From Candidatus Micrarchaeota archaeon (GTDB lineage Archaea; Micrarchaeota; Micrarchaeia; Anstonellales; Anstonellaceae): a DNA stretch of 46,124 bases. A program made the translations under genes and the position numbers. This document shows positions 1,460-27,627 of the stretch, in pieces. Under the pieces are notes generated by a model. That model made no database searches, was not told the origin of the DNA, and saw only the letters and a program-made list of their open reading frames with translations. Each line of letters begins with the position of its first letter. Positions within the stretch are counted from its first letter, which is position 1. The stretch covers positions 1 through 46,124 of the forward strand of contig JAZDHB010000025.1 of the NCBI GenBank assembly GCA_043806415.1, in the 5' to 3' direction.

Positions 1460-3223
1460 ATGCCAAGAATCGCGATTATCGACCGAGACAAGTGCATCAA
1501 GGAGAAATGCGGCTACATCTGCCAGAAGGTCTGCCCGGGCGTGCAGATGGGCGACGATACGGTGACGGTGGACGCCGACGGCTTCCCGGTCATCTCGGAG
1601 ATATTGTGCACCGGCTGCGGCATCTGCCCCAAGAAATGCCCGGTGGACTGCATCACCATCATCAACCTCGCCGAGGAGGGCGGGGTGAAGATGCACCAGT
1701 ACGGCGTGAATTCCTTCCGCCTCTACGGCATGCCCCTGCCCCAGAAGGGCGTGACGGGCCTCATCGGAAAGAACGGCATCGGCAAGAGCACGGCCCTCAA
1801 GATCCTCTCCAAAAGCATCGTCCCCAACATGGGCGATTACGCCGATCCCCCGCCCATGTCCGACGTCATCGCCCGCATGCCCAAGGAGGTCGGCTATTAT
1901 TTCAAGAGCCTGGGCGAGCAGAAGATCAAGGTCTCGCTCAAGCCCCAGAACGTGGACAAGATCCCCTCGCTTTTCGGCGGAAAGGTAAAAGACCTGCTCG
2001 AGAAAACCGACGAGCGCGGCGCCCTTCCCGAAGCCATCAAGCTCTTCGAGCTGGAGAACATCATGGAGCGCCGCCTCCTGCAGATATCCGGCGGCGAGCT
2101 GCAGCGCGTGGCCATCGCGGCCGCCTATTGCAAGGACGCGGACATCTACTATTTCGACGAGCCGGCCAGCTACCTGGACATCTACCAGCGCCTGCGCGTG
2201 GCCCGCGCGCTCAAGGAGCTGGCCGAGAAGAAGAACGTCATCGTCGTCGAGCACGACCTGGCCCTCTTCGACTACCTGAGCGACTACGTCTATGTCTTCT
2301 TCGGCCAGGAGAACGCCTACGGCATGGTGTCGGGCCTCAAGAACACCCGCTCGGGCGTCAATGATTATCTGCGCGGTTTCCTGCGAGAGGAGAACATCCG
2401 CTTCCGCGACCACGAGATCGTGTTCGACCGCTCGGCCCAGATGGGCACCAACAAGAAGACGCGCTTCTCCTACCCGGAGTTGAAACGGAAATTGGGGCAA
2501 TTCCGCTTCCAGGCGCAGCCCGGCCAGCTGCACGAGGGTGAGATCGTGGGCATCGTGGGCCGCAACGCAACCGGCAAATCCACCTTCGTGCGCATGCTCG
2601 CCGGCGTGGAGAAGAACGACGGCGAGGAGATCGGCCTTTCGATGCGCGTGTCCTACAAGCCGCAGTACATCCAGGCGCAGGGCGGGCGGACGGTGGGCGA
2701 GCTGTTCATGGCCAGCAAGCTGGATGCCATGGTGTTCGAGCAGGCGCGAGCGAAACTGAACGTCGAATCGCTCATGGACAAGGACCTCGAGCACCTCTCC
2801 GGGGGCGAGTTGCAGCGCGTGGCCATCGTGCTGGCCCTCTCGCAGGACGCGGACCTCTATCTCCTGGACGAGCCCAGCGCGTTCCTCGACGTCGAGCAGC
2901 GCCTTCATTTGGCCAAGCTCGTGCACAACCTCATCGAGAATTCCAGGAAGACGGCGTTCGTGGTGGACCACGATCTTGTGCTCATCGACGCCATTTCCAC
3001 GCGCGTCATGGTGTTCGAGGGCGAGCCGGGCGTCTCGGGCGCGGCCTCCGCCCCGACCGACAAGCGCACGGGCCTGAACAAATTCCTCAAAGAGGTGGAC
3101 ATCACGCTGCGGCGCGACCCGGAGACCTTCCGGCCGCGCATCAACAAGAGCGATTCGGCCCTCGACCGCGAGCAGAAGGCGGCGGGCGAATACTACTATT
3201 ACGATCCGGACGCCGATAAGTAG
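1460..3223 (+). CDS. abcE1: ABCE1 / RNase L inhibitor-type ribosome recycling ATPase
   Basis: N-terminal FeS domain (CxxCxxxCP, CTGCGICPKKCP). Two ABC cassettes with Walker A GLIGKNGIGKST and GIVGRNATGKST, and signature LSGGELQR in both. 587 aa. Confidence 0.95.
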   Translation: MPRIAIIDRDKCIKEKCGYICQKVCPGVQMGDDTVTVDADGFPVISEILCTGCGICPKKCPVDCITIINLAEEGGVKMHQYGVNSFRLYGMPLPQKGVTGLIGKNGIGKSTALKILSKSIVPNMGDYADPPPMSDVIARMPKEVGYYFKSLGEQKIKVSLKPQNVDKIPSLFGGKVKDLLEKTDERGALPEAIKLFELENIMERRLLQISGGELQRVAIAAAYCKDADIYYFDEPASYLDIYQRLRVARALKELAEKKNVIVVEHDLALFDYLSDYVYVFFGQENAYGMVSGLKNTRSGVNDYLRGFLREENIRFRDHEIVFDRSAQMGTNKKTRFSYPELKRKLGQFRFQAQPGQLHEGEIVGIVGRNATGKSTFVRMLAGVEKNDGEEIGLSMRVSYKPQYIQAQGGRTVGELFMASKLDAMVFEQARAKLNVESLMDKDLEHLSGGELQRVAIVLALSQDADLYLLDEPSAFLDVEQRLHLAKLVHNLIENSRKTAFVVDHDLVLIDAISTRVMVFEGEPGVSGAASAPTDKRTGLNKFLKEVDITLRRDPETFRPRINKSDSALDREQKAAGEYYYYDPDADK

Positions 3224-3253
3224 GCGGCGGATGGACGGCGGGCCGGGAGACTC

Positions 3254-3928
3254 ATGGAAATCAAACCCGTATCAACAGGCCCAATGGGCAATGCCAACCC
3301 CAAACCCCGGAGCAATCCCATCGTCAAAGTCAAGGATGCGTTCGATAAGGCCAAACCCCCGCCCGAAACCCCTGCTTCTTCCGCCCAGACGGCGCCGGGC
3401 CGCTCCGAGGAGGACCATCGGGTCGCGGCCCACGATTACCTCCAATCCTTTTACCGCGAGCACCGCACGCTGCTTGATTCGATCCCCAAGGCGTATGCCC
3501 GGACGCTCCGGTCCGCCCAGGAGGGAGATTTACAAGGGGCCGAACAAGGTCTTGACAAGGCTTTGAACCTCACCAACCGGCTCAAAGGCATCACCCGCGA
3601 TGCGCGCGAGCTTCTGCAATCTTCCGGCGAGGCCGTGGCGGATAGCAGCCAGGCGGTCCATTACCCGAAAATGGATGCCTTGCTTGGGCTGGAGAATGTG
3701 CTGGCGGTTGCGGCCACGGTGCCAAACCTCCATCTGGGAGTCTATTTCCGAACCGCCGCCAAGCTCACCCCGGAGCAGAAGGACGCCTCGCTGGCCGAAC
3801 TCAAACAAAGCACGGATAAGCTCGTGGGGATTTACGGGCGCCTGCACGCGCTCGGCAACGGGCCGGAGCATCTGTCCGATTTCCTTGTCTCGGAAGTGGC
3901 GCCATTCTCGGTTGACCGGAAAGCCTGA
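3254..3928 (+). CDS. Hypothetical protein (Pro-rich N-terminus, helical C-terminal part)
   Basis: 224-aa ORF whose codon usage resembles that of neighbouring genes. I recognise no family motif. Confidence 0.5.
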   Translation: MEIKPVSTGPMGNANPKPRSNPIVKVKDAFDKAKPPPETPASSAQTAPGRSEEDHRVAAHDYLQSFYREHRTLLDSIPKAYARTLRSAQEGDLQGAEQGLDKALNLTNRLKGITRDARELLQSSGEAVADSSQAVHYPKMDALLGLENVLAVAATVPNLHLGVYFRTAAKLTPEQKDASLAELKQSTDKLVGIYGRLHALGNGPEHLSDFLVSEVAPFSVDRKA

Positions 3929-4007
3929 GCCCCCTCGTTGTCATCGACAAGCCGGCAGAGAAACCGCCTGCTTCAGCGGGCGGAGCAAATGCCGGCGCCG
4001 GCTCAAC

Positions 4008-4182
4008 CATCGGCCCGCAGCCGATGGTGCAACAAGGCTCGACGCGTCGAGCCTTGTTTGTGTCGAGAAGCCGCCGAATGAGCACCAAACCCAGCCCTCC
4101 CGATTCGCCCTTCTGGGCGAATGGGCATCGTGGCGCGAATCGTCGCGCCACGATTGTTAGGGCTGGGTGCTCTTCGGCGGCT
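4008..4182. other. Cluster of GC-rich perfect inverted repeats that can form a three-way junction; candidate structured RNA or palindromic element
   Basis: Hairpin 4008-4026. Perfect 28-nt palindrome 4031-4058. Nested outer stems 4069-4078/4173-4182, 4080-4084/4168-4172 and 4090-4097/4160-4167 enclose hairpins 4103-4122 and 4127-4154. Confidence 0.5.
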
Positions 4183-4219: not shown

Positions 4220-7200
4220 CTATTCCATTTTGGCAATCGGCAGGCTCACTTCGATGGTGGTCATCTTCCCGCCATAGGCCGGCCCCAAATCCGTGAATCC
4301 GATCGTGCCTCCCATCTGCTCGGCGGCCCACTTGCAGTACCAGAGGCCCACTCCGGTCGAGCCTTCTTTGCGGTTCTCCAGCTTGGTGTTGTAGTCGAAG
4401 GCGTGCGCCGCCATGCCGGCCGAAAGCCCCGGGCCGTCGTCCGACATGCGGATCTTCACATCCGAAGGCCCGATCACGACTTCAATTTTTCCTGCGCTCG
4501 ACCCATAGCGCTCTGCATTGGACACCAAGTTTTCAATTATCGCCCGAACCATAAGGGGGTTGTAGTTCGCGAAAACGCTCTCGTCCTGAAGCCGGATGGG
4601 TTCCAGAGCGGAGCCATCTGTGGTCTTGTAATACTGCACGTCCATGCTTATGCGGCGGTTTTTGGTGCTGTTTGCGCAGGCATCATAGATGGTCAGGGCG
4701 ATGTTGTTCAGCCGGATCTGCGTGGAGCCTTCCATTTCGCTTAGGGCGATGTCCAGCCCGTCTTGGGCGAATTTGAAAAGGTCGATGAATTCATCCATCT
4801 CTTGCCCGCCCTGCTGGTTTTCGAGCAGGGGGATGACCTTATCCAGCGCGGCACGGGTCGTTTCGATGTTCTTCTCCATGTCTGCGATGATTTGGGCGGG
4901 CTCGCGCGGCATCTGCACCGATTCGCTGCCCGGTCCCGTCTGCGGGGGTTTCTTGGATTTGGCCAATTCGTCGAACAGACGGCCCATCTCCCCCCCGGAT
5001 TTGGATACGAGCTTGAGGTTCTCCACGAGGGCAGGGGGCGAAGATTCCTGATTTATGTCCATGAGTATGATTTCAGCCAAATTTCTCGGCGTTATGGCAA
5101 GGTTTTTTGCATTGTGCATGATGCCCACTTTCAGCATCTCGGCCATTTCCTCGCTGGCCGTGTTGCCCAATTCTTCAATGTTTTTTAGGGCCGCGTTCTC
5201 GCCGGTTTGTTTAGCTACCTTCCGTTCTTCTATCCTATCATTTATATTTGGCTGGGCGATGACCTTGCCTCCTTCGTAGATATTTGAAAATTCGCTTGTC
5301 CACTTTACATCGAATAGGGGCGTGCCGGCGGGGTCAGTTCCGGCATATTCTATTATGTGCCCTGCATCCGTTGAGGACGGGGCATAAAACAGGGCGTTCT
5401 TGTATCTCCCGCTTGCGCTTCTTGCCATCCCGCCGATCACGTCGGCACCGGATTTGCATCCCACGACTATGACTGAGGGGTGCGGAATGAAATACTTGGA
5501 GAGATCCCCGCCATAGGCGATTCCGACCCCAGAGACAAGGCCGCTGATCGCGTTTCCAAGCTGCATGGTTCTTTTCGTCGAGTGCCCGGAAACCCAGACG
5601 GAGGAGATCAAATCGCCATACAAGCCGGCTGTTTTTGCGATCTCGTTCTTAGCGTCTTTGGCGCTGCCAACCTCCACAATCCGCGCGTCCATGTTCTCGC
5701 ACAGCCCTTCGATATTCTTTATATCCCCGTAAAACGCTCCATTCCAATCTCTCAATGGATTGATGATAACCATCAAAGGTTTGAGTGGATTTCGTTTTCC
5801 GTAATTGTCATACTGGTTAATCAGCGTTTCAAGCGAGTACCTTCCAAAGAATTCGATACCGTTGTTCTTGTGAAGAAATTCCACTGCGCCCGGTCGCTCA
5901 AATTCCAGTGCATCCATTGCGCATGCATTTATGATTAAATCCGCCAAACCCCGGTTGTAATGCGGGTATTTCTTGCGGAATTCTTCTGGCGCATCCCGGA
6001 TATTCTGTAGATTCTCTCCAAATGATCGGCCTGCCTCCATATGATTGCGAAGTTTTACCAGCCCGTTGCCTATACTTACGTCTCCGTCTTTCTTGAAATT
6101 GGATAGAATAACCCCGACCAAATCTCTATATTCCGGGCTAAAAGACGGGGAATTGATGATTCGGAGATACTCGGATACGCTGAACGCGCAACCCGCACGC
6201 TTGGACCCGCGGATTATCTTTTCCACGCAGTCAGCGTCGATAACGTCAAACTTTTCCCATGCAACCGACTTGGGCAGCTCGAAAGGGCGCCCGAACTTCT
6301 TTTCATAAATTTCCTGAATTTTGTCGATGCTGGCTTTTTTGTCAAGTTCGGCTTTTGCATCCATGCCCGAAGCTTGCCCGGTCTTGCTGTCCGGTTTGGT
6401 CTGATCCGTGGCAACGGGTGTCTCAAACTTCTCGACCATCCGGTCGGGCTGTGTCTTTTCCCGCTCCTTCCATGATGTTTTCTTGTCCCATTTCGAGACC
6501 TTGATTTCTTTGCCGCCTAAATTAGCTTTCTTGATTGCTTTCTTAACGTATCTCCTGAATTTTACCGTTCCTAATAACCCATACGAAAAACTCATGCATC
6601 GGTCATATGTCCCGTCCCCAAGCTTTTCATCCAGCGCGGCCTTGAGCCGGGCGTGATTGCCATTGAAATAAGCGTCATTCATGACATCCTGCCCGACGAT
6701 TTGCTCCAGATAATAAGCTCCCTCCACCGCCGACCCATACACTCTGCTGCTTTTCACGCCATTCTTCTCCAAAATGGCCTCCGTGAGGAGTTGGGTGTAT
6801 CCTTCGTTGAATGCGCCGTCTTTCCCCAAGGAGCCTAGGTAGTGGTGAGTCTCATGGATGAGTACGGAGACGCTTCTGGCCCTGGCTTTGGGCATGCCCG
6901 CCCGCTCTACCAGAATGATATCTGTTGTGGGGTAATATTCGCCCATCCTTGCCAATATCAATGGGAACAAGACATTGGCTCCCAGCACCATCGGCGGGTT
7001 CTCCTGCAGGAACTTGCCCTGGGGCGTCCCTTCGTATTCTTTTTCCATCAAACGCATTGCCTTGGTAAACCCGTCTGTGGTGGTCACGTCGGTCTTGTTC
7101 AAGGAGCCCCTGTACGCCACTCCGCGCACTTTGCTTCTGTTTCCCTGATAGTTTTTGACATATCCTCCGGCATCTTTTGTCGAGTAGCGCCGGATGTTCT

Positions 7201-9262
7201 TATACTTGGAAGCATCTGTCGTCCATTCCTCGTGCAATGCATCAAGGCTCTCCAGCGTTGTGAGGCCCTTCTTAAAGAACCTTGCGTATGCCGCGGTAAT
7301 ATTATTCATTTTTTCTTCGATTTCTTTCAATCGGAGCTTGCCCGCATCGCTATTGCCTCGAATATCCATGCGCTCTCTCACCAAACCGTTGCATTCGTCG
7401 ATTGTCTTCTCCAGGTAATGGATTCTTCTGCGTCTGGATTCGATACTCCGCTTCTGCTCTTCCGGCGTCAGGGTTTGGCCGTCCTTCGCTTCATGTCCCG
7501 TTCCAATGCTGCTGGACGTGGTGTTCGTCTCGTTCCCTTTTTCCAGGGGCCTGTTGCCGTCCATCTGCAGCCCATTCGTCTTCTCCACCATGTTGCGCTT
7601 CTTCCCGCCCCCAAACGTTTTGCTTGCCAGCGGCAGGCCGATCATCATGCCCGCGTCCGCGCCGATTTTCATCACGTCCGCGAGGCTCCAATAGCTCGAG
7701 CCCGCCCGCAGGACCGTTTTCCAGATCTCGTACGACATGGTGCCCGTCATGCCGGCCGATGCGCCGATATCCGCGAGCCTGACCGCCGCGCCCATTGCCT
7801 TGCTCTCGGCCCCCAGCGTGGCAACCACCCGCCCCGCGCCCGGCACGCACATGAGCGCGCCCATGATGGCCTGTCCCGCGCTTCCGTTTTTCATGGCCTG
7901 GTCGATCTGATGGGCGCCCATGCCGAAGAACAGCGCCGCCCCCACCCCGGGCTGCACGAGCGAAACGACGCCCAGGCCGGCCATTTCCAGCTCGCCTGAA
8001 TAGCGCTCGACGAATCTGGAAACGGGCGCCCAGAACCGGTTGGTGATGGGGGACTCGGAGTAAAGGCCGAAAAAGGTGGGCTCGTAGGTGCGCCAGCGCT
8101 CGTTCTCCATCGCCTTGCCGTATTTGTCGAAAATGGATCCGGCCTGCGAGACGAACTCTTCGGGTTCGACGTTTCCCCAGTTGGTGCGCACCGCCTCCTC
8201 GAGCAGGCCCGCGTCCCGGCCCACGCCCGCCAGCGTGCGGCGGATGTCCGCATCCGGCGTCTGGCTTGCCACCTGCTTGGAGCTTATCCCGACCCCCAGC
8301 AGCCACGCGCCCATGTTCCTGCGCACCTCGTCCGGCGAATCCGCTTCCCAGTCCCTTTGGCCGGTCAGGTATCCTTCGGCGCGCGAGCCTCGGAGGGCCG
8401 GCTCGCGCTCTGCGAGTTTCTGGAGCAGACTGTCCAGATACTTCGCCATCTCCTCCGGGCCCTCCAGTTTGGCGAGCGCGCCGGAAACGTTCTTTGGCGA
8501 GAACTGCGAGAATCCTGCTGGCACGTTGCGCCATTGCCCTTGCGTGTCGGCGTAAGTCGCGTCCGTCTCGGCCTTGAATATCTTGCTCCCGCCTTTTTCC
8601 AATCCATCCAGCTCCCCGATGAGCCCGGAATAGAGCGCGGGTTGCATCCGGCTTTGGAGCACGACCCCGTACTCGTCCGCGTCCAGCTCGTTTCCGAAGA
8701 GGGCGTAGAAACCCGAAATCCGCCCCTCCTTGTTTCGGACCTCTTGCATGGGCGCCTGTTCCTTGAGGTACGCCTCCTGCTCGGCCCGGCTCTTCTTGAT
8801 GGCGGCCGCCACCTTCTTCTTCCCGGCCACGTCCGGGGAGATGTTATCCAGGATCTTCATCTTTTCCTCGCTGGAGGTGCTCCCGTCCTTTTGCGAGAGG
8901 AAACGGATCTGGCCAACCAGAGCCTCCTCGCTTTTTTTGGCGCTTGATGCGAGGAGTTTCCTGTTTTCCTTGCGCCCGCCGTATCGCACCGCTTTTTCCA
9001 GCAGCGCGATCTTGTCCTTGACGGAAGCGTCCGAATTCTCATATTCAACCAATAGTCTCTTGAGCCGGGCATCCGTCCGATTGTCCGGCCGCCCGGAGTT
9101 TGCGATGATCGATCCGATGTCCTGCGCCACGGCCCAGCCGCTCCGCTTTATCCTGGCGTCAAGACGGATCTGCGAGCCGCCCATCGTCCCTTCCGCGGGC
9201 AATGTGTCGAAGAAGAAGCGCTTGTCCGCTTTCCGTCCATCCGTCGCGGCCTTTTGTTGCAT
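4220..9262 (-). CDS. Giant (1680 aa) multidomain protein: unknown N-terminal region, glycine-zipper membrane segment, coiled coil, HExxH zincin motif, possible His/Cys hydrolase region, C-terminal GHKL (HATPase_c) domain
   Basis: Uninterrupted 5 kb ORF. C-terminal N-box IENLVSNAERYG, G1 DDGPGL and G2 GSTGVGLW. LIHETHHYLG at codons 6842-6862. Gly/Ala-rich hydrophobic stretch at aa ~425-552 (nt 7607-7990). TATA attttattaat (9281-9293, minus sense) lies about 25 nt upstream of ATG 9262. Confidence 0.85.
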   Translation of the reverse strand: MQQKAATDGRKADKRFFFDTLPAEGTMGGSQIRLDARIKRSGWAVAQDIGSIIANSGRPDNRTDARLKRLLVEYENSDASVKDKIALLEKAVRYGGRKENRKLLASSAKKSEEALVGQIRFLSQKDGSTSSEEKMKILDNISPDVAGKKKVAAAIKKSRAEQEAYLKEQAPMQEVRNKEGRISGFYALFGNELDADEYGVVLQSRMQPALYSGLIGELDGLEKGGSKIFKAETDATYADTQGQWRNVPAGFSQFSPKNVSGALAKLEGPEEMAKYLDSLLQKLAEREPALRGSRAEGYLTGQRDWEADSPDEVRRNMGAWLLGVGISSKQVASQTPDADIRRTLAGVGRDAGLLEEAVRTNWGNVEPEEFVSQAGSIFDKYGKAMENERWRTYEPTFFGLYSESPITNRFWAPVSRFVERYSGELEMAGLGVVSLVQPGVGAALFFGMGAHQIDQAMKNGSAGQAIMGALMCVPGAGRVVATLGAESKAMGAAVRLADIGASAGMTGTMSYEIWKTVLRAGSSYWSLADVMKIGADAGMMIGLPLASKTFGGGKKRNMVEKTNGLQMDGNRPLEKGNETNTTSSSIGTGHEAKDGQTLTPEEQKRSIESRRRRIHYLEKTIDECNGLVRERMDIRGNSDAGKLRLKEIEEKMNNITAAYARFFKKGLTTLESLDALHEEWTTDASKYKNIRRYSTKDAGGYVKNYQGNRSKVRGVAYRGSLNKTDVTTTDGFTKAMRLMEKEYEGTPQGKFLQENPPMVLGANVLFPLILARMGEYYPTTDIILVERAGMPKARARSVSVLIHETHHYLGSLGKDGAFNEGYTQLLTEAILEKNGVKSSRVYGSAVEGAYYLEQIVGQDVMNDAYFNGNHARLKAALDEKLGDGTYDRCMSFSYGLLGTVKFRRYVKKAIKKANLGGKEIKVSKWDKKTSWKEREKTQPDRMVEKFETPVATDQTKPDSKTGQASGMDAKAELDKKASIDKIQEIYEKKFGRPFELPKSVAWEKFDVIDADCVEKIIRGSKRAGCAFSVSEYLRIINSPSFSPEYRDLVGVILSNFKKDGDVSIGNGLVKLRNHMEAGRSFGENLQNIRDAPEEFRKKYPHYNRGLADLIINACAMDALEFERPGAVEFLHKNNGIEFFGRYSLETLINQYDNYGKRNPLKPLMVIINPLRDWNGAFYGDIKNIEGLCENMDARIVEVGSAKDAKNEIAKTAGLYGDLISSVWVSGHSTKRTMQLGNAISGLVSGVGIAYGGDLSKYFIPHPSVIVVGCKSGADVIGGMARSASGRYKNALFYAPSSTDAGHIIEYAGTDPAGTPLFDVKWTSEFSNIYEGGKVIAQPNINDRIEERKVAKQTGENAALKNIEELGNTASEEMAEMLKVGIMHNAKNLAITPRNLAEIILMDINQESSPPALVENLKLVSKSGGEMGRLFDELAKSKKPPQTGPGSESVQMPREPAQIIADMEKNIETTRAALDKVIPLLENQQGGQEMDEFIDLFKFAQDGLDIALSEMEGSTQIRLNNIALTIYDACANSTKNRRISMDVQYYKTTDGSALEPIRLQDESVFANYNPLMVRAIIENLVSNAERYGSSAGKIEVVIGPSDVKIRMSDDGPGLSAGMAAHAFDYNTKLENRKEGSTGVGLWYCKWAAEQMGGTIGFTDLGPAYGGKMTTIEVSLPIAKME

Positions 9263-9494
9263 GTGCGCATTTTCAGGGGCAGATTAATAAAATCCCCGCC
9301 CGCCGGCCTTCGTTCCGATGGCGTCGGATCCGCCATTTTTTCGGACCGGCCCGCCTCCGGTCTGTCCATCCAAGCTCCCATTCATACTCGTTTTTCCTTT
9401 TTGCCACCCTGCGGGCGAAAATCCCGCATTCGAGCCGAGGAGAAGATAGCTATTTAAACCATTTCATCGTAGCGATGGCGCAACAGGCGACATT

Positions 9495-10562
9495 ATGGAC
9501 AGCATTGTGAAGTCAGTCCTGGGAGAGCAAGAGCCAGCTCAGAATGCAGAATCTTTTGGCTCAGACCAAATTAGGATAGTTGTAGTAGGAGTAGGAGGCG
9601 GTGGCAACAACACCATCAACCGACTCATCCGCTCGGGCGTGAAGGGATGCGATCTGGTCGCGGTGAATACCGACCGGCAGCACCTGAACATGATCCACGA
9701 GAAAGCCAAGAAGGTGCTCATCGGAAAGAGCATCACCAAAGGTCTTGGCGCTGGTGGCTACCCCGAGACCGGGACGAAGTCGGCCGAAGTCGACCGCGGA
9801 CTCTTGGAAAAGGAAATGGAAGGCGCCCACCTCGTGTTCATTTGCGCGGGCATGGGCGGTGGCACGGGAACAGGCGCTGCACCGGTGATCGCGGAGATCG
9901 CCAAGGAGCAGGGGGCCATCACCGTGGCCATGGTGACCTATCCGTTCAACCTCGAGCGGGCCCGCCGGCAGAAAGCCGACGAAGGCATCCAGAAACTGCG
10001 CAAGACCGTCGACTCGGTTATCGTGCTTGACAACAACAGGCTCGTCAAGCTCGTGCCGAACCTCCCGATGAACGAAGCGTTCGCGGTGGCCGATGAGATC
10101 CTGGCCAAAGCGGTCGGTGGCCTGGTATGGACCATCACCCAGCCCAGCCTGATCAACATCGACTTCGCCGACGTGCGCGCGATCGTATCGGGCGGAGGCG
10201 TGGGCTTCATCGCCGTGGGCGAGGGCAAGGGCAACGACAAGGTTCGCGGGGCCGCCGAAGGCGTGCTCAAGAACCGCCTGCTCGACGTGGACTTCGACGG
10301 CGCCAACGGCGCCCTGATCCACATCTCCGGTGGCGCCGACCTGACATTGGGCGATGCCATCAAGGCCGGTGAAATCATCACCGAGAAGATGGATCCGCAG
10401 GCCAACGTCAAGTGGGGTGCCCGTCTCATCCCCGGATACGACGGAAAGCTGGAAATCGTGGCGATCGTCACCGGCGTCAAGGGAGCCAACATATTCGGTT
10501 CGGCCCCCGAGGAGCCGGCGCGCGCGCCCTCGAGCTACAGCGACATCGAGATAATCGGATAA
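9495..10562 (+). CDS. ftsZ: Cell division GTPase FtsZ (paralog A)
   Basis: IVVVGVGGGGNNTINRL, the tubulin signature AGMGGGTGTGAAPVIAEIAKE, and NDKVRGAAE... Confidence 0.95.
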   Translation: MDSIVKSVLGEQEPAQNAESFGSDQIRIVVVGVGGGGNNTINRLIRSGVKGCDLVAVNTDRQHLNMIHEKAKKVLIGKSITKGLGAGGYPETGTKSAEVDRGLLEKEMEGAHLVFICAGMGGGTGTGAAPVIAEIAKEQGAITVAMVTYPFNLERARRQKADEGIQKLRKTVDSVIVLDNNRLVKLVPNLPMNEAFAVADEILAKAVGGLVWTITQPSLINIDFADVRAIVSGGGVGFIAVGEGKGNDKVRGAAEGVLKNRLLDVDFDGANGALIHISGGADLTLGDAIKAGEIITEKMDPQANVKWGARLIPGYDGKLEIVAIVTGVKGANIFGSAPEEPARAPSSYSDIEIIG

Positions 10563-10965: not shown

Positions 10966-12084
10966 ATGGGGTATATGTTCGAGGACATCATTGCATCGGC
11001 AAAATCAAACGGCAGCGTGCAGCAGGAAGCGCGCGCGGCCTCAAGCGACGAGAGCTTATTCTCAAACGACAAAATCCGCATCGCCGTCATCGGCGTCGGC
11101 GGGGCGGGCTGCAACACCGTGGACCGCATGATGAAGAACGGCATCAAGTCCGCGCAGACCATCGCGATCAACACGGACAATCTCCACTTAAGAAGCATCC
11201 AGGCGCACAAGAAAATCCTCCTGGGCGCGAACGTCACCAAAGGCCTCGGAGCCGGCGGCTTCCCTGAGGTGGCCCAGAAGTGCGCCGAAGCTTCCCGCGC
11301 GCAATTGCGCGAGCAGATCGGCGAGAACGAGCTCGTGTTCCTTGCGGCCGGCATGGGCGGCGGCACCGGCACCGGCGCCTCCTCCATCGTGGCCGAAGTG
11401 GCCAAAGAGCAGGGCGCCATCGTCATCTCCATCGTCACGATCCCGTTCGCGCTCGAGCGGGCGCGCATCAAGAAGGCTGAATGGGGCCTCAAGCAGCTCG
11501 CCGCCGTCTCCGACACGGTCGCGGTCATCGACAACAACCGCCTCGTGAGCTACGCGCCGAACCTCCCCATCACCGAAGCCTTCAACCTCGCCGATGCCAT
11601 CACCGGCAAGGCCGTGCTGGGCATCGCCGACACCATCATGCTCCCCTCGCTTCTGAACATCGACTATGCCGATGTCAAGTCCATCATGGAGAAGGGCGGC
11701 ATCTCGCTCATCTCGCTGGGCGAAGGCCGGGGCACCGACCGCGTGGACCAGGTGGTCAAGAACACGCTCGATCACCCGCTGCTCGACGTCTCCTACGAAG
11801 GCGCCAAAGGCGCTTTATTGCACATCTGCGGGGGCAACAGCCTCTCGCTGGGCGATTCCATCTCCATCGGCGAAAAGCTCACCTCTAGCTTCGATCCCAA
11901 CGCCAATGTCAAGATCGGCGCGCGCCTCGTGCCGGACATGGGCGACACGGTCAGCGTGACGGCCATCGTCACCGGCCTTAAATCCGGGCAGGTGATGGGC
12001 ATGCTGGTGGGCGAGCGGGGCGACGAGCGCGCCCCCAATTCCCCCCGCCCGCCGAGCATGATGGAGAACATCGTCGAGATATAA
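10966..12084 (+). CDS. ftsZ: Cell division GTPase FtsZ (paralog B)
   Basis: IAVIGVGGAGCNTVDRM and AGMGGGTGTGASSIVAEVAKE. An alternative ATG at 10975 is possible. Confidence 0.95.
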   Translation: MGYMFEDIIASAKSNGSVQQEARAASSDESLFSNDKIRIAVIGVGGAGCNTVDRMMKNGIKSAQTIAINTDNLHLRSIQAHKKILLGANVTKGLGAGGFPEVAQKCAEASRAQLREQIGENELVFLAAGMGGGTGTGASSIVAEVAKEQGAIVISIVTIPFALERARIKKAEWGLKQLAAVSDTVAVIDNNRLVSYAPNLPITEAFNLADAITGKAVLGIADTIMLPSLLNIDYADVKSIMEKGGISLISLGEGRGTDRVDQVVKNTLDHPLLDVSYEGAKGALLHICGGNSLSLGDSISIGEKLTSSFDPNANVKIGARLVPDMGDTVSVTAIVTGLKSGQVMGMLVGERGDERAPNSPRPPSMMENIVEI

Positions 12085-14713: not shown

Positions 14714-15385
14714 TCAGTTCCCGCTCGAGGATAGCCTGTCCAGCTTCTCGATCATGTCGTTGAGCTCTTTTCCGTACACGGCCGACACCTTCAACGTCGC
14801 CGAAAACTGCGTCTCGATCGGGATCTCCTTGTTGATGCTGACCATGACGTTCCCGTAGCTCTTGGCCACATCGATGGGGATGCTCGCATTGACCTTGAAG
14901 TTGTCCTTGATGTGCAACGGCACGAGCTGGCCGGTGTTGGACTGCGCCGTCACGGTGGTGTCGATGGGGACGTCCGCCGTCAGCGGCACGCTGAACGAAT
15001 CGGGCAGCACGTCTGCGATCGGGAACGTCTTGTCGATCACGACCGTCGTGCGCAGGGGCGAGGTCATGGTGATTTCCTTGTTCTGGATGGCACGCAGGTC
15101 GGCCGTGACGTCCTTGAGCACGGCGCGGTCGGACGCGCTCAGCCCCTTGACGGACGTCACCGAGACGAACAGGGCGGCGGCGGAGAGCAGCAGGGCGACG
15201 AGGCCGAGCACGAGGGGCAGTTTGGACATGGCGGCCGCTTCGGCGCCCGCCGACTCGAGCGAGGCTTTGTCCGATGCGCTCTTCGCCTCCTCTTTCTTGG
15301 GCTCTTTCGCCCCTTCCATCTCTTCGCGGCTCTTGCCGGCCATGAGGCCGGAGGGGAGCTTGGAGAAATTTTCGTCGTTTGCCAT
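14714..15385 (-). CDS. Hypothetical single-pass membrane protein
   Basis: Acidic/basic N-terminus, TM LPLVLGLVALLLSAAALFVSV, and a beta-rich C-terminal domain. No family recognised. Confidence 0.6.
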   Translation of the reverse strand: MANDENFSKLPSGLMAGKSREEMEGAKEPKKEEAKSASDKASLESAGAEAAAMSKLPLVLGLVALLLSAAALFVSVTSVKGLSASDRAVLKDVTADLRAIQNKEITMTSPLRTTVVIDKTFPIADVLPDSFSVPLTADVPIDTTVTAQSNTGQLVPLHIKDNFKVNASIPIDVAKSYGNVMVSINKEIPIETQFSATLKVSAVYGKELNDMIEKLDRLSSSGN

Positions 15386-15450
15386 AACGTCCTATTGCGG
15401 CGAATAATTAAAAAGCGATTTGCCCTTAATGGAAGCCTAGGTGATTTTCG

Positions 15451-15732
15451 ATGCCCAAAGTCCTGTTCAAGAATGACAATCTTAGCGTGGAATGCCCGGC
15501 CGGCACCAAGCTCGTCGAGTTGGCCGAGCAGAAAGGCGCGTCCATCAACTTCTCGTGCAAGGAGGGCGTGTGCCTCACCTGCCTCGTCAACGTCGTGTCC
15601 GGCATGGAGAACCTCAACGCGCGCACCGAGAACGAGACAAGCACGCTCGAGGCGTTCGGCGCGCAGCCCAACCAGCGCCTCGCCTGCCAGGTCGTCATCA
15701 ACGGCGACTGCGTGATCGAGACGGTCGGATAA
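15451..15732 (+). CDS. [2Fe-2S] ferredoxin (plant-type fold)
   Basis: 93 aa with CKEGVCLTC (Cx4Cx2C) and a distal Cys in RLACQV. Confidence 0.8.
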   Translation: MPKVLFKNDNLSVECPAGTKLVELAEQKGASINFSCKEGVCLTCLVNVVSGMENLNARTENETSTLEAFGAQPNQRLACQVVINGDCVIETVG

Positions 15733-15763
15733 AAGGCGGGCCAGCCGCGCTGCAAGGTGACCC

Positions 15764-17209
15764 ATGGGTTCTGCCAAAAATTATATGCTTGCGGCCATCG
15801 CATTGGGGGTCTTCATACTTCTCGTCTGGGCCTGCTTTCAGGTCGGAAAGGCTTACATCGAGAAGGCAATCGTATATATTGCGGTGTTCTTCGTTTTGCT
15901 GATTTTCGCCCTTGGTGGCCTCGGAGTCTATTATCATGGATTGAATCTTTATCGGATCTATTCGCTCATCCAATATACGCCTACGTCAAAGGCCGTATCC
16001 TTGGCACCTGGCATCAGCGAGGCGCAGGGGCCGGCCCAACCGCACGACCGGCTCAAGACGGCACCTTACGGCCTCAAGCCCTGCGTGTTCTATTGGACGC
16101 GTATATACAAATGGTCGGGTTATGGAAAACATCGAAGACGCGACCTAGTGAAAGTCCTCAAAAGCAACGATTGCTTCGACATCGTGGACGAGACGGGCGC
16201 CATCACCATCCGCCCCTCGAAAATCCCGGGAGGCCACGGGGAATGGGAGGGCGACATCTACCTCAAGCGCGATGTGAATGCCCGAGTGGTGCCGAGCCGG
16301 AACAGCCTTTTTGGGGTTATGGGCCGGATAATGGCGATTCTGATGGGACGCGAGCCCCCCAAGCCGCCCGAGCCGAAGTCCGGAAGCGATAAGGGGCGCA
16401 TGCGCGCCATGCTGGCGTCCTATTGCCCCGATCTGCTCGAATACCGCGACCAGGTGGATGTGGAGGAGACCTACATCGAGCCGGGCGATCTGATTTATGT
16501 CTTGGGCACGGCGCGCCCCAAAGAGGCTCAAAATCCGGATGATCTGGAGATTGCCTACGAGCCGACCAACAAAATCTTTTGCGTCTCAGATGGCAGCGAG
16601 AAGAATACAAAGCGAAGCGCTCTTCTGAACGCTTTTTTGCTCGGCTTCATCGGCCCAATAATCTTCGCAGTCTGCATTATGCTCATGGCGAGGATATGCG
16701 CGGCTGGATTGAGCCAGATCGTGGACAGCCTTTTGGCCGGGCTGGTCGTGCTTCTTTATACCTGGTTTGCAGCTACCAATCTTTTCGAACTCTATAACGG
16801 CACCGTCCGCCTGCGCCAGAACATCGAGAAAGCGAAGGCCAATGCAGACGCTCTTTATGACATGCGCCATAATTTGTTGCCCAAGCTGGTCGACGTGGCC
16901 CGGTCGGCTTCCAAATACGAAAAGGGATTGCAGGACGAACTGGTGCGTTTGCGGGGGGTGGAATCTGAAGATGCCCTCAAGCGCCTGATGGCCTTGAGCG
17001 AGGACTATCCGAAACTGAAGGCCAGCAAGAACTTCCTGTTTCTGCAAAAGCGGCTTGAAACCGTGCAGGAGAGGCTGGCCGGCTCGCAAGCCTATCTGGT
17101 GGATGCCACCACGCTCTACAACGCGCGCGTGCAGTCTTTCCCCTATTTCCTCTTCACGCCGTTGGTGGGCCTGCGGGCGATGCCGATGCCTGATTTCAGT
17201 TCGGCTTGA
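15764..17209 (+). CDS. Membrane protein with a C-terminal LemA domain; the N-terminal TM and central domain are possibly GIDE-like
   Basis: The C-terminal third (NLFELYNGTVRLRQNIEKAKANADALYDMRHNLLPKLVDV...YNARVQSFPYFLF) matches the LemA pattern. Several N-terminal and central TM helices are present. Confidence 0.75.
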   Translation: MGSAKNYMLAAIALGVFILLVWACFQVGKAYIEKAIVYIAVFFVLLIFALGGLGVYYHGLNLYRIYSLIQYTPTSKAVSLAPGISEAQGPAQPHDRLKTAPYGLKPCVFYWTRIYKWSGYGKHRRRDLVKVLKSNDCFDIVDETGAITIRPSKIPGGHGEWEGDIYLKRDVNARVVPSRNSLFGVMGRIMAILMGREPPKPPEPKSGSDKGRMRAMLASYCPDLLEYRDQVDVEETYIEPGDLIYVLGTARPKEAQNPDDLEIAYEPTNKIFCVSDGSEKNTKRSALLNAFLLGFIGPIIFAVCIMLMARICAAGLSQIVDSLLAGLVVLLYTWFAATNLFELYNGTVRLRQNIEKAKANADALYDMRHNLLPKLVDVARSASKYEKGLQDELVRLRGVESEDALKRLMALSEDYPKLKASKNFLFLQKRLETVQERLAGSQAYLVDATTLYNARVQSFPYFLFTPLVGLRAMPMPDFSSA

Positions 17210-17987: not shown

Positions 17988-18422
17988 CTAAGTCCGTTCA
18001 GCACGCCGTAGCCATTCGCTTTTCCTTTCCAGTTTGGCATCCAGCGACTCCTTGACGCCCATCCACTTGAATCCGCAGAACGGGGCATCCACTTTCGCCG
18101 TCCGCCTCTTCGCGCTCACCATAAAGCCGAGCGCCGGGACGAATTTCCGTCTTTTCCTCGAGCCCACGTTGAATTCCCCCTGCACGATCGCCTGATGCAC
18201 CTGTGCGTCGATGCCGCACTGGGCCGCGACGGCCCGCTTGAGGGCTTCCACCGGATCCTCGCCGGCATAGACGAATACGGACGGAAGGGCGAAAAGGCTT
18301 TTTCCGGCAAAATCCTTCGTCTCCAGGAAGAGGTACCTTCCCTCGTCCTCGAGCAGGGCGCAGGCTAGGGCGACCGGCTTCTTGGCTTCGAGCAATTTCC
18401 TTCGGCGCATGATTGAATGCAT
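17988..18422 (-). CDS. Nudix-fold protein with a degenerate Nudix box
   Basis: GEDPVEALKRAVAAQCGI occupies the position of the Gx5Ex7REUxEExGU box, but the catalytic EE pair is absent. An alternative start at 18410 is possible. Confidence 0.45.
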   Translation of the reverse strand: MHSIMRRRKLLEAKKPVALACALLEDEGRYLFLETKDFAGKSLFALPSVFVYAGEDPVEALKRAVAAQCGIDAQVHQAIVQGEFNVGSRKRRKFVPALGFMVSAKRRTAKVDAPFCGFKWMGVKESLDAKLERKSEWLRRAERT

Positions 18423-18474
18423 CCCGTAATGTTCTTATTGATGCCTTGTCAGATTTATTCTGTTGCCGGTGTCG

Positions 18475-18543
18475 CATAACCTGGCAGCGCGCGAAGCCTT
18501 TTTCTTTCGTGCCGAAAGAAAAAGCCTTCAGGGAAAAAGAAAG
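18475..18543 (+). pseudogene. tRNA-Ser 5' fragment (positions 1 to about 26) fused to a copy of the intron hairpin element (family member 2, 18494-18543)
   Basis: CTGTTGCCGGTGTCGCATAACCTGG is identical to the region around the start of the functional gene 111 nt downstream. The anticodon-arm 5' strand is deleted. The hairpin CTTTTTCTTTC/GAAAGAAAAAG has one extra T and one matching extra A relative to the intron copy. Confidence 0.6.
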
Positions 18544-18552
18544 GGCGATTTG

Positions 18553-18560
18553 TTATAAAA
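18553..18560 (+). promoter_or_regulatory. TATA box for tRNA-Ser
   Basis: ttataaaa lies 26 nt upstream of tRNA position 1. Confidence 0.6.
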
Positions 18561-18585
18561 TGATACAGGGTAGAATCACTCTGTT

Positions 18586-18736
18586 GCCGGTGTCGCATAA
18601 CCTGGTAGTGCGCTGGTCTTGAAGAAGCCTTTTCTTTCTGTGAAAGAAAAGCCTTCAGGGAAAAGAAAGTCCCGAAGGGAGGCTTCCAGATAACCAGTCC
18701 CTTACGGGATTGCAGGTTCAAATCCTGCCGCCGGCG
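18586..18736 (+). tRNA. tRNA-Ser(UGA), class II, with an approximately 68-nt intron at 37/38 (about 18624-18691; family member 3)
   Basis: GCCGGTG-TC-GCAT-AACCTGGTA-GTGC-G-CTGGT-CTTGAA[intron]A-ACCAG-TCCCTTACGGGAT(long variable arm)-GCAGG-TTCAAAT-CCTGC-CGCCGGC-G73. Confidence 0.85.
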
Positions 18737-18818
18737 CTCACTTCGCTCGCTTGTCGGCAGTTTGAGCCCTGCGGGCTCAAAACCCTCGCGCATCTGGCGC
18801 TCGGTCCTGCCGCCGGCG
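18737..18818 (+). repeat. 68-nt hairpin mini-insert plus a 14-nt duplicate of the tRNA-Ser 3' end
   Basis: TCCTGCCGCCGGCG occurs at 18723-18736 and again at 18805-18818. The insert contains the hairpin TTTGAGCCC-TGC-GGGCTCAAA (18761-18781). Confidence 0.8.
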
Positions 18819-18864
18819 ATTGATTATTTAACTGTCGCATTCTTATCCCTCTAGAGGTTTTCCC

Positions 18865-19020
18865 ATGGGAATGAGCAAGCACGATCTGGAGCGAAAAAGG
18901 CAGAACATGAAGCGGCGCGTGGAGGAGCTGGAGCTCCTCGTCAAGAACGACCCGCTCAAGCGCAAGCCCCAGATCCACGAGGAGCTCGAGAAGCTCAAGA
19001 AGCAGCTCGCCGAGAACTAG
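18865..19020 (+). CDS. Small (51 aa) coiled-coil protein, hypothetical
   Basis: MGMSKHDLERKRQNMKRRVEELELLVKNDPLKRKPQIHEELEKLKKQLAEN. The A/T box gattatttaac lies about 27 nt upstream. It is below the ORF-track size cutoff. Confidence 0.4.
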   Translation: MGMSKHDLERKRQNMKRRVEELELLVKNDPLKRKPQIHEELEKLKKQLAEN

Positions 19021-19050
19021 TTTTCGGCCCTTTCAATCTTTTCCGCCTTT

Positions 19051-19365
19051 TTACTCTTTACTCGATTTTCGGAAGGCGTCGATCAGCCCGTGGGCGTAGT
19101 TGATGGCCCCGAACGCGGTCACGTAATCCTTCTTCTTGAGGAAATATTTGGTGTCCTCGCAGTATTGCTCTGCCAGCTCCAGCACATATGCGTTATCCGT
19201 CGTCTTCTTCACTTCCTTGACGTTGGCGTAGAACTGGTCGATGTCGGAGCGGATCCGCTCCTCATCGTTTTTCGCGCTGGCATGGCCGGATTTTCTTTTT
19301 TTGCGCTCCATTTCCATTCCCTTTGCGACGAATTCGTTTTCTGACGTGATTTGTTGCGATATCAT
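19051..19365 (-). CDS. DUF357-like small archaeal protein
   Basis: ELAEQYCEDTKYFLKKKDYVTAFGAINYAHGLIDA resembles the DUF357 helical-hairpin motif as I remember it. I chose the MISQQ start because the TATA ctattatag lies about 20 nt upstream. The track ORF extends to 19413. Confidence 0.5.
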   Translation of the reverse strand: MISQQITSENEFVAKGMEMERKKRKSGHASAKNDEERIRSDIDQFYANVKEVKKTTDNAYVLELAEQYCEDTKYFLKKKDYVTAFGAINYAHGLIDAFRKSSKE

Positions 19366-19379
19366 TTTAAGTCCCCGCC

Positions 19380-19388
19380 CTATAATAG
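19380..19388. promoter_or_regulatory. Palindromic TATA box (ctataatag) shared by divergent genes
   Basis: It lies between ATG 19365 (minus) and ATG 19413 (plus). Confidence 0.45.
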
Positions 19389-19412
19389 CCTTCGCATGCT
19401 GGGGTAGTTTCA

Positions 19413-19754
19413 ATGCTCGTCATCACCAAATCATTCATCGGCCGCGTCAAATTCGGGCAGAAGGAGGACGCCGGCGTGTACACCTGGATCGCCTATCCCA
19501 ACGACCAGTATGCGATGCATTCGGCGGTGATGAAGGTCACCCCGGTCAGCAAGAACCACGAGGAGGGCGAGGAAGAGAAGAAGCACGCGCACGTGAAAAG
19601 CGAGCAGGGAAAAGGCGGCCAAGACGGAGAAGAAGAGAGGAAAATCCAGAGCGTGAAAGTCGGAGGGGGCGATTCTTCCGTGGAGGTCGCGCCCGCCCCC
19701 GCCCGCGTCGCCACCCTCCAGCCGTTCAAGCAATTCGAGCTTTTCCTGAACTAA
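19413..19754 (+). CDS. Hypothetical protein with an acidic low-complexity centre
   Basis: 113-aa ORF about 29 nt downstream of the shared TATA. No family recognised. Confidence 0.45.
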   Translation: MLVITKSFIGRVKFGQKEDAGVYTWIAYPNDQYAMHSAVMKVTPVSKNHEEGEEEKKHAHVKSEQGKGGQDGEEERKIQSVKVGGGDSSVEVAPAPARVATLQPFKQFELFLN

Positions 19755-19797
19755 ACCCTTTTTTAATTTGATTTTGGCCTATTTAACAAGCATTCAT

Positions 19798-19947
19798 GCC
19801 CTCGTAGCTCAGTGGTAGAGCGCCTGTCTCGTAAGCTTTTCTTTTCTCCTGCGGGAGAAAAGAAAACCTTGGAAATGAAAAGAGAAGCATCGGCTTTCTT
19901 CTCTTCGGGATAACAGGAGGTCACGAGTTCAAATCTCGTCGGGGGCT
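19798..19947 (+). tRNA. tRNA-Thr(CGU) with an approximately 78-nt intron at 37/38 (about 19834-19911; family member 4)
   Basis: GCCCTCG-TA-GCTC-AGTGGTA-GAGC-G-CCTGT-CTCGTA[intron]A-ACAGG-AGGTC-ACGAG-TTCAAAT-CTCGT-CGGGGGC-U73. Confidence 0.9.
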
Positions 19948-20024
19948 AAACTTCGTTTAGCCAGCCCGACTTTGAGCCTGCTGGCTCAAATCCCGCCAAC
20001 TGTTGTTGGCGGTCGTCGGGGGCT
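19948..20024 (+). repeat. 65-nt hairpin mini-insert plus a 12-nt duplicate of the tRNA-Thr 3' end
   Basis: TCGTCGGGGGCT occurs at 19936-19947 and at 20013-20024. The insert has hairpins TTTGAGCC-TGCT-GGCTCAAA (19971-19990) and CCGCCAAC-TGTT-GTTGGCGG. Confidence 0.8.
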
Positions 20025-20053
20025 TGCGAAGAAAAGTTAAACTTCAATATCGA

Positions 20054-20749: not shown

Positions 20750-20786
20750 GGAAAATTCACCACTTAGATCTTTTATCTTTTTGTCA

Positions 20787-21092
20787 TTATTTCGAGTCTA
20801 ATGCCTCTTGTAGTTCTCGCTCTGCGGTTTCCCAATCTCCTCCTTGAGTCAATAGACCGAGAAGAATTCCGCCAAACAAAACGATGTTGATTGTGTTGAA
20901 CCGTCCGAACTTCTCAACTATCTTACCTTCTTCATCTAAACCAAAATAAAGAGTTCTATAAAAAAATACACGTATCGCCTCGATATTATGCCCATCTTGG
21001 GAAAGAGAAACATCAAACTTTCCACTTGCTTTTAGCTTGTCGATTGTTTTTTGCATTTTTTTATTCTCGGTAAGATCGCCCGTCTTTTCCAT
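20787..21092 (-). CDS. Small hypothetical protein with one TM (islet cargo)
   Basis: 101 aa with the hydrophobic segment INIVLFGGILLGLL. Confidence 0.5.
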   Translation of the reverse strand: MEKTGDLTENKKMQKTIDKLKASGKFDVSLSQDGHNIEAIRVFFYRTLYFGLDEEGKIVEKFGRFNTINIVLFGGILLGLLTQGGDWETAERELQEALDSK

Positions 21093-21310
21093 AAGAAACT
21101 AACCGAATTGTTATATATTAATCAATCGCCAAGTGAGAATGACCTCCAAATATGGGCAAACAACGAGTTTTTAATGTCATAAGAAAACCAAACTATAACT
21201 ATCTGTTCAAATCTCGTCGGGGGCTTAAACACATCCCGGAATCAAGTTGAAGAAAAAGAAAAACAAAAAGAGAAACGCCGGATAAAATAGAAAAATCCGG
21301 GCCCGAAAGC

Positions 21311-27625: not shown

Positions 27626-27627
27626 CA

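Follow-up and report, generated by a model that had tools for sequence, protein, structure and literature searches.

In the present study, we analyzed a stretch of 46,124 nucleotides (nt) from a Candidatus Micrarchaeota archaeon (contig JAZDHB010000025.1; hereafter, the window), which is archaeal with a guanine plus cytosine (GC) content of approximately 58%, and focused on a gene on its minus strand that encodes a giant protein of 1,680 amino acids (aa). This protein and its relatives form a small family of modular giants, hitherto undescribed, in Micrarchaeota and related DPANN archaea, which are symbionts with small genomes. The domains of the protein are new or divergent members of the known superfamilies GHKL, clan CD, and gluzincin. 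Our tentative reading is that it is a polymorphic effector or a toxin-like protein that undergoes recombination and is processed by an internal protease; we regard this as a genuine possibility rather than a conclusion. This reading is favored because a constant N terminus is combined with exchangeable cassettes, a peptidase precedes the terminal domain, the gene bears a footprint of recombination, and the gene appears to be self-contained.

Regarding the family, the preliminary description of this gene had called its product an orphan, which did not hold. P0002, a hypothetical protein of 1,165 aa from a Micrarchaeota metagenome-assembled genome, is 51% identical to the giant protein over aa 1-604 and unrelated beyond that point. 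The N-terminal module is also shared by P0003 (1,498 aa) and P0004 (2,182 aa), both annotated as Micrarchaeota, and by P0018 (1,156 aa), which is encoded on an archaeal-type groundwater contig; all three carry the Gly/Ala motif described below together with a cysteine-protease-like domain, and their downstream parts differ, which demonstrates the swapping of these parts within the family. P0003 is 43% identical to the giant protein over aa 1004-1374 and has a C terminus, after the cysteine-protease-like domain, with sub-threshold PIN-like matches (E=5.7e-4 and 5.7e-3), P0004 consists of the N-terminal module, the cysteine-protease-like domain, HATPase_c, and further sequence, in that order, and the downstream part of P0002 gave methyltransferase matches below the threshold. 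An exhaustive phmmer search with aa 561-1561 against 1.84 billion cluster representatives (E<1e-3) returned 633 matches, nearly all of which fell on aa ~1110-1335. The family of giants as a whole is very sparsely distributed.

The view that no described family has this combination of domains was confirmed: Pfam, NCBIfam, PHROGs, and PADLOC detect HATPase_c only, a search for a known conserved architecture found none, and we found no paper describing the family. A known anti-phage defense system was rejected because PADLOC gave no match for the giant protein, P0002, P0003, P0004, or P0018. A phage tail tape-measure protein was also rejected, since PHROGs matches to the giant protein were confined to the HATPase_c region and included no tape-measure protein, tail genes were absent, and the context is one of housekeeping genes. 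In P0004, the C-terminal ~480 aa that follow HATPase_c (locus L003, ~15100-16549) contain 'GDGHTRNYML...RIDFQAFGY', which by eye is reminiscent of the catalytic loop and DFG motif found in HipA- or PI3K-like kinases; Pfam finds nothing in this region.

The footprint of recombination lies in the codon composition of the gene. GC at four-fold sites was 0.873 in the housekeeping genes of the window, which served as the reference, and 0.862 in the codons for aa 1-590 (p=0.67 vs housekeeping genes); it fell to 0.653 over aa 591-1410 (p=5e-25 vs housekeeping genes and p=1e-9 vs aa 1-590) and was 0.831 over aa 1411-1680 (p=2.5e-4 vs aa 591-1410). The breaks are sharp and located at aa ~590-630 and ~1410. 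Since the first coincides with the end of the homology to P0002 and native values are reached again at the second, the cassette consisting of the zincin and the cysteine-protease-like domain is suggested to have been exchanged by recombination, and its acquisition from a lower-GC relative is the simplest reading of these values. The loci encoding P0002 and P0004 have GC contents of 49% and 46%, respectively. Scans of the gene for repeats and terminators revealed nothing relevant at the junctions.

The same switches would also be produced if two or three genes from related populations had been joined in conserved stretches during assembly, and the exact protein is encoded on one contig only, with no independent contig encoding it. 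However, since the flanks and both ends of the gene share the native composition, such a chimera requires two precise in-frame switches in a frame that stays open for 5 kb, and the same domain order recurs in the independent assemblies of P0003, P0004 (two assemblies, NCBI and JGI), and P0018 (5 contigs). An assembly fusion of separate genes, which had been named as an outcome that would refute the preliminary description, is unlikely on the basis of this recurrence; the codon mosaic leaves it some room, and we consider it highly improbable.

The internal protease is assigned to aa 1110-1335, which we regard as a divergent clan CD domain similar to DUF4347 and to the cysteine-protease domains (CPDs) of toxins, and as a putative protease. 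In an alignment of 79 sequences, only four columns were invariant, D1172, E1197, and the putative catalytic dyad H1227 and C1269, and the family has a characteristic N-terminal segment, 'FGRY..L..QYD'. The core of the AlphaFold2 model had a predicted local distance difference test (pLDDT) value above 90, and two strands in it, E220-226 and E259-268 in the numbering of the model, stop directly before His1227 and Cys1269. The invariance of these residues and the fold match supported the earlier proposal of a protease-like region around them. In a Foldseek search against the PDB, caspase-7, caspase-3, CED-3, gingipain R, and 9qpe_G (Tce1) ranked at the top with probabilities of 0.85-1.00; 9qpe_G had a probability of 1.00 and, among these, the best target-normalized TM-score (0.60). 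A profile search with the trimmed core also placed 9qpe_G, a 'DUF4347 domain-containing protein', first, and the GHGT and SC motifs fell on its His and Cys residues. The assignment to a DUF4347/CPD-like domain is based on the Foldseek result and this ranking; the trimmed core was used because the untrimmed alignment, owing to the ARM-like N termini of ~500-aa homologues, had been swamped by designed helical-repeat proteins. One of 35 homologues matches DUF4347 itself (1.9e-4), and a viral fold library contained no meaningful match for the model. Tce1 is a type VI effector and putative cysteine protease, the closest structure to which is the cysteine-protease domain of TcdB (PMC13323088), and PA0256 has been annotated as DUF4347 (PMC8262886).

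The named relatives of this domain belong to Micrarchaeota, Iainarchaeota, and Altiarchaeota, and many of them are giant, the longest reaching 3,547 aa; many relatives of ~500 aa carry ARM/HEAT-like repeats. One of the latter, P0011 (locus L026, 8001-9509), combines ARM-like repeats with the cysteine-protease-like domain in ~500 aa and is encoded on a bacterial-type contig with FtsW/RodA, SecD/SecF, SHMT, and FolD, and, thus, the family of this domain extends beyond archaea.

Upstream of the cysteine-protease-like domain, the motif HETHH was found together with FNEGYT, and aa 680-917 are predicted to form a small, unannotated gluzincin-like family. The HExxH motif had been reported earlier at aa 802-811; the motif itself stands, but LIHETHHYLG occupies aa 801-810. 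Stand-alone homologues detected by phmmer, P0015 (376 aa) and P0145 (347 aa), share H803, E804, H807, a Tyr residue, and N818-E819-G820-x-T as invariant positions, and gut-metagenome proteins have the same HExxH...AFNEGYT signature. This conservation supports the zincin call, and the Glu residue of NEG could be the third zinc ligand. Pfam and the PDB provided no significant family match; the best PDB profile match was leukotriene A4 (LTA4) hydrolase, with aligned HExxH and NEG motifs at a non-significant E=0.82. The helical pre-domain at aa 1004-1109, located between this region and the cysteine-protease-like domain, was modeled with low to medium confidence.

A giant chain that unites a zincin and a thiol peptidase with further enzymes also resembles the polyvalent proteins of phages and conjugative elements, which Iyer et al. 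are said to have described in 2017, and the giant protein may accordingly be conceived as a polyvalent protein of a mobile element that is delivered with DNA and has been domesticated or resides in an unrecognized integrated element. The foreign composition of the central part of the gene and the stand-alone zincin homologues in gut-metagenome contigs are consistent with such an origin. However, phage or plasmid genes do not flank the gene, PHROGs recognizes HATPase_c only, nothing was found in viral contigs or in the viral fold library, and codon composition is native in the N-terminal third and at the C-terminal end; we consider this origin to be quite improbable.

The C-terminal domain was identified without ambiguity. 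PF02518 scores 54.6 bits at aa 1570-1676 (cut-off, 26.4; E=1.7e-14), and the N box (ENLVSNAERYG, 1577-1587), G1 box (DDGPGL, 1608-1613), and G2 box (GSTGVGL, 1634-1640) are intact, as expected from the preliminary description of a histidine-kinase-type ATPase. The best matches in the PDB and NCBIfam were the catalytic domains of EnvZ, CpxA, and RstB. A HisKA/DHp domain was absent from the giant protein even at E<=10. The phospho-acceptor His of this domain is expected ~100-125 aa upstream of the N box; His1383, the sole histidine between 1303 and 1619, is located 199 aa upstream of the N-box Asn, and there is no histidine from 1384 to 1619. Among the open reading frames (ORFs) of the window, none matched Response_reg. 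A canonical two-component sensor kinase was ruled out by the lack of HisKA, of a plausible acceptor His, and of a nearby response regulator, and the C terminus is, to judge from its sequence, a kinase-derived ATP-binding module that has lost the HisKA phospho-acceptor module.

Intact ATP-binding motifs are also what a protein with functions inside its own cell may have, and the main rival to the effector reading is a cytoplasmic, possibly membrane-peripheral regulatory or signaling scaffold, in which an atypical kinase or ATPase is joined to two proteases and which acts on the proteins of the cell itself in regulated proteolysis or stress signaling and is never exported. Consistent with this, all recognizable domains are cytoplasmic-type enzymes, a signal peptide and a transmembrane-grade segment are both absent, the genomic context is one of housekeeping genes in all loci, and many of the cysteine-protease-like relatives are ~500 aa long, carry ARM/HEAT-like repeats, and lack toxin features, a bacterial-type housekeeping contig encoding at least one of them. 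We nevertheless consider a scaffold to be somewhat unlikely: it would signal without HisKA, an acceptor histidine, or a nearby response regulator, its downstream part is freely exchanged among relatives with the same N-terminal module, which is atypical for a conserved housekeeping regulator, its central cassette is of foreign composition, and its family is very sparsely distributed.

The constant part of the protein consists of an all-helical region that ends in a Gly/Ala-rich module. As had been described, the first ~420 aa have no motif or signal peptide: there was no match in Pfam or NCBIfam and no hydrophobic leader. An AlphaFold2 model of aa 1-600, based on a 5-row alignment, had a mean pLDDT of 49.8, and its confident part was a helical bundle at aa ~40-185 (pLDDT 80-92). 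Foldseek returned only generic helical repeats for this model, with no E-value <0.5, and the fold was not assigned. The module at aa ~424-553 has a Gly plus Ala content of 31% and the motif S-L-x-[NQ]-P-x-x-G...F..MG...I..G....I.GA.M..G, and is the best-conserved stretch with respect to P0002 (69% identical). Its presence had been noted correctly, but as a hydrophobic block among membrane modules, which did not hold. By a crude Hessa-scale sum, the best 19-residue segments of the giant protein scored +5.0 kcal/mol, near the +5.7 kcal/mol of soluble FtsZ from the window, as compared with -3.1 and -2.4 kcal/mol for the two true membrane proteins of the window, and every candidate helix of the block contains a central Pro-Gly; the block is, therefore, predicted not to be of transmembrane grade. 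The linker that follows is basic and charged, with Lys plus Arg at 22% and Asp plus Glu at 18% in aa 601-700.

The breadth of the N-terminal module is under-sampled, since k-mer-indexed protein searches with the N-terminal 580 aa and with an alignment of the Gly/Ala module missed even the query, probably because Gly/Ala-rich words saturated the candidate list. Scans with degenerate patterns for this module found only the contig of P0002 itself among species-representative genomes, and none in metagenome contigs or viral contigs.

These properties of the N terminus also bear on the idea that the giant protein mediates interactions between cells or with a host, for which we found no direct support. 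Nanohaloarchaeota, which are DPANN symbionts, have giant proteins called SPEARE, in which several enzymes including a protease are combined and which have been proposed to act on the host; by analogy, the giant protein may be a surface or cell-cell protein that attaches the DPANN cell to its host. Giants recur in DPANN archaea, including cysteine-protease-like relatives of 2,342-3,547 aa in Altiarchaeota and Micrarchaeota, SPEARE similarly mixes a protease with other enzyme domains, and P0004 is encoded between type-IV-pilus-like loci (T2SSE/T2SSF). However, the giant protein has no signal peptide, no adequate transmembrane anchor, and no adhesin-type, Ig, beta-helix, or lectin-type repeats, its domains are all of the cytoplasmic-enzyme type, and neither the window nor L001 or L027 conserves the setting of pilus genes, so that attachment to a host appears to be improbable. 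At the P0004 locus (L003/L004), the type-IV-pilus-like genes lie on both sides (1643-3651 and 18518-21625) and are accompanied by genes for a large TPR protein and a protease of the PrsW family, a setting that the window does not have.

With respect to the genomic context of the family, a conserved operon partner or immunity gene was rejected because the three loci compared share no neighbor. The neighbors of the giant gene are ABCE1, two FtsZ genes, and unknown ORFs, and a fourth locus, L027, has only housekeeping-type neighbors according to Pfam. The giant gene appears to be self-contained because it has no conserved operon partner and because the surroundings are of the housekeeping type in four loci.

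Under the effector reading, the constant all-helical N-terminal region, which ends in the Gly/Ala module, would serve trafficking or targeting, and the gluzincin-like, caspase-fold cysteine-protease-like, and HATPase_c domains that follow would be interchangeable enzymatic cassettes. The internal cysteine protease would cleave the polypeptide in cis, which would release or activate the enzymatic modules on either side of it, inside or at the cell of a partner or competitor, and recombination would renew the payload. The data show the identities of the domains, the family, the swapping of the downstream part, and the compositional mosaic; catalytic activity, autoprocessing, any export route, and the target are inferred. 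In polymorphic toxins, the typical 'releasing peptidases' are caspase-like domains that immediately precede a C-terminal toxin domain (PMC3482391), and in the giant protein, P0003, and P0004, the cysteine-protease-like domain is located upstream of a distinct C-terminal domain. The overall pattern follows the logic of polymorphic toxins and of multi-effector toxins with autoprocessing, such as MARTX and TcdA/TcdB.

Several observations weigh against this reading. The fold match of the protease domain is modest, with Foldseek E-values of 2.7e-3 or weaker and target-normalized TM-scores of 0.35-0.60, its similarity in sequence to DUF4347 falls short of significance (E=0.17 for the trimmed profile against 9qpe_G), and the giant protein does not match the Pfam models for DUF4347 or Peptidase_C80. 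In most of the 633 relatives, the cysteine-protease-like domain is the C-terminal-most domain, so that its role may be that of an effector or of a regulatory protease and not that of a releasing peptidase. Pfam, NCBIfam, and the Hessa-scale sum detected no signal peptide, transmembrane-grade segment, or known trafficking domain, and neither the PIN nor the methyltransferase matches of relatives reach the threshold. The window, L001, and L003 share no neighbor, and no conserved candidate for an immunity gene was found beside any family member. To our knowledge, HATPase_c is not a toxin domain, and we know of no secretion system for such proteins in DPANN archaea.

A more specific version of the effector reading, which we consider to be unlikely, is that these proteins constitute a class of recombining giant multi-effectors that is peculiar to Micrarchaeota and other DPANN archaea, in which a lineage-specific N-terminal delivery module and a self-cleaving CPD-like protease lead to the release of payloads into the host archaeon via cell-cell contact. 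The payloads may include a metalloprotease, a kinase-type ATPase, a PIN nuclease, and a methyltransferase, and this class may be an archaeal analogue of the MARTX, large clostridial, and polymorphic toxins that operates without a known secretion system.

The giant gene accounts for 10.9% of the window, and its uninterrupted ORF bears out the earlier account of a single gene of 1,680 aa that occupies approximately 11%. The order of domains given in that account (a motif-less, hydrophilic N terminus, Gly/Ala block, charged linker, HETHH, His1227/Cys1269, and HATPase_c) is correct, as summarized with other features in Table 1. A leaderless transcript, as had been proposed, is plausible because the TATA-like TTTTATTAAT is located ~25 nt upstream of the ATG and because the sequence upstream of this codon contains no Shine-Dalgarno-like motif. 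No paralogues of the giant protein were found elsewhere in the window.

Table 1. Features of the giant gene, its product, and its immediate upstream neighbors; nucleotide positions refer to the window.
Feature	Residues (aa)	Position (nt)	Strand	Basis or remark
Giant gene	1-1680	4220..9262	-	One intact ORF, 1,680 aa plus stop codon
TATA-like TTTTATTAAT		9283-9292	-	Centre ~25 nt upstream of ATG; read from sequence
All-helical N-terminal region	1-423	7994..9262	-	Conserved with P0002
Gly/Ala-rich module	424-553	7604..7993	-	Family signature; conserved in P0002, P0003, P0004, P0018
Basic, charged helical linker	554-679	7226..7603	-	Composition
Compositionally foreign central cassette (zincin and cysteine-protease-like)	~591-1410	5033..7492	-	GC at four-fold sites
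Gluzincin-like metallopeptidase-like domain (predicted)	680-917	6512..7225	-	HExxH and FNEGYT; homologues
HExxH (HETHH)	803-807	6842-6856	-	Sequence
FNEGYT	818-823	6794-6811	-	Sequence
Lys/Glu-rich low-complexity linker	918-1003	6254..6511	-	Lys plus Arg 27% in aa 901-1000
Helical pre-domain	1004-1109	5936..6253	-	Common to P0003, P0058, P0115, P0120
Caspase-fold (clan CD) cysteine-protease-like domain (putative)	1110-1335	5258..5935	-	DUF4347/Tce1-related; homologues, model, Foldseek
His1227	1227	5582-5584	-	Invariant column
Cys1269	1269	5456-5458	-	Invariant column
Helical, low-complexity linker	1336-1560	4583..5257	-	Without HisKA
HATPase_c ATP-binding domain	1561-1680	4223..4582	-	Pfam PF02518; N, G1, G2 boxes intact
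Two tandem FtsZ paralogues		9495-10562 and 10966-12084	+	Immediately upstream of and divergent from giant gene

The housekeeping genes of the window encode ABCE1, an eRF1/Pelota-like protein, two FtsZ proteins, diphthamide synthase, and EF-2. The small ORFs downstream of the giant gene (3254-4160) have no family match, and a 28-nt perfect palindrome (AACAAGGCTCGACG/CGTCGAGCCTTGTT) at 4031-4058, ~160 nt past the stop codon, may act as a hairpin at the end of the transcript or as a binding site for a protein. An ORF of 879 aa on the minus strand (332-2971) is over-extended: domains 1-3 of eRF1/Pelota are found only in its last ~350 aa, and the remainder overlaps the ABCE1 gene on the opposite strand (1460-3223 (+), with 4Fe-4S and two ABC domains), such that the real eRF1/Pelota gene probably spans ~332-1390 and is divergent from ABCE1. 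A protein of 481 aa (15764-17209 (+)) has a LemA domain limited to its last ~120 aa, its N-terminal 360 aa being without assignment. The [FeFe]-hydrogenase-like protein of 620 aa at 25961-27823 (-), which has large-subunit C-terminal, small-subunit, 2Fe-2S, and 4Fe-4S domains, is noteworthy for a DPANN archaeon with a presumed small genome. Two further blocks, 17998-20749 and 38027-43433, have an atypically low GC at four-fold sites (0.31-0.47 and 0.58-0.70, respectively) and may be foreign or integrated DNA; the latter block contains an AAA_14/DUF4143 ATPase, a SEC-C-motif protein, and a family-less ORF of 958 aa (40335-43211), next to tRNA-Cys (43363-43433).

The manipulation of hosts by DPANN symbionts is largely unknown. 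If the effector reading is true, giants that swap cassettes around a toxin-type cysteine protease would be concrete candidates for effectors of host interaction or conflict, and existing co-cultures of Micrarchaeota with Thermoplasmatales could serve for testing such effectors. Regardless of this reading, two unannotated domain families were delimited that are fit for domain databases: a caspase-fold domain that resembles DUF4347 and comprises more than 600 clusters, of which many are found in DPANN giants, and a small HExxH-NEG zincin. The interest of the giant protein would be modest if it is an intracellular regulatory scaffold and high if it proves to be delivered to a host cell.

A comparison with known systems suggests that the architecture is a new form of the multi-domain autoprocessing toxin theme. 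The C-terminal 110 aa resemble sensor histidine kinases such as EnvZ, CpxA, and RstB in having a typical HATPase_c with N, G1, and G2 boxes, whereas the giant protein differs from them in having no HisKA/DHp domain, no sensor transmembrane domain, and no neighboring response regulator. The zincin shares with the gluzincins of family M1, including leukotriene A4 hydrolase, an HExxH motif followed by N-E-G-x-T; however, the spacer between HExxH and NEG is 11 residues as compared with 18 in M1, and the domain is far smaller and matches no peptidase family in Pfam. SPEARE proteins resemble the giant protein in being multi-enzyme giants of a DPANN symbiont with a protease domain; they are described as proteins of the membrane or surface that carry serine protease, adhesion, and restriction-endonuclease domains, and none of these domain types was detected in the giant protein.

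Among proteins with DUF4347 (the type VI effector Tce1/PA0256 of Pseudomonas aeruginosa, PDB 9qpe_G) and the C80 CPDs (TcdA/TcdB and MARTX), the likeness extends to a length of ~200-230 aa, an alpha/beta caspase-like fold with His before Cys, the motifs GHG(T)...LG and h-h-h-x-(S/G)-C, which align with the domain of the giant protein, and a placement within or on large multi-domain proteins. CPDs of the C80 type in toxins perform autoprocessing (PMC13323088, PMC3482391). The family of the giant protein differs by the extra invariant residues D1172 and E1197 and the 'FGRY..L..QYD' segment, and an inositol hexakisphosphate (InsP6)-type activator is implausible because the named relatives are DPANN archaea. 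Polymorphic toxin systems, which have been reported to be rare in archaea (Zhang et al. 2012, PMC3482391), differ from the giant protein in their recognized trafficking domains (PAAR, LXG, TPS, RHS, and others) and conserved adjacent immunity gene, and in that the terminal domain of the giant protein is a kinase-type ATPase and no known toxin. The likeness to these systems lies in the constant N terminus and recombining C-terminal modules of the family, in a thiol peptidase that is located upstream of a distinct C-terminal domain, and in the compositional mosaic of the part that is exchanged.

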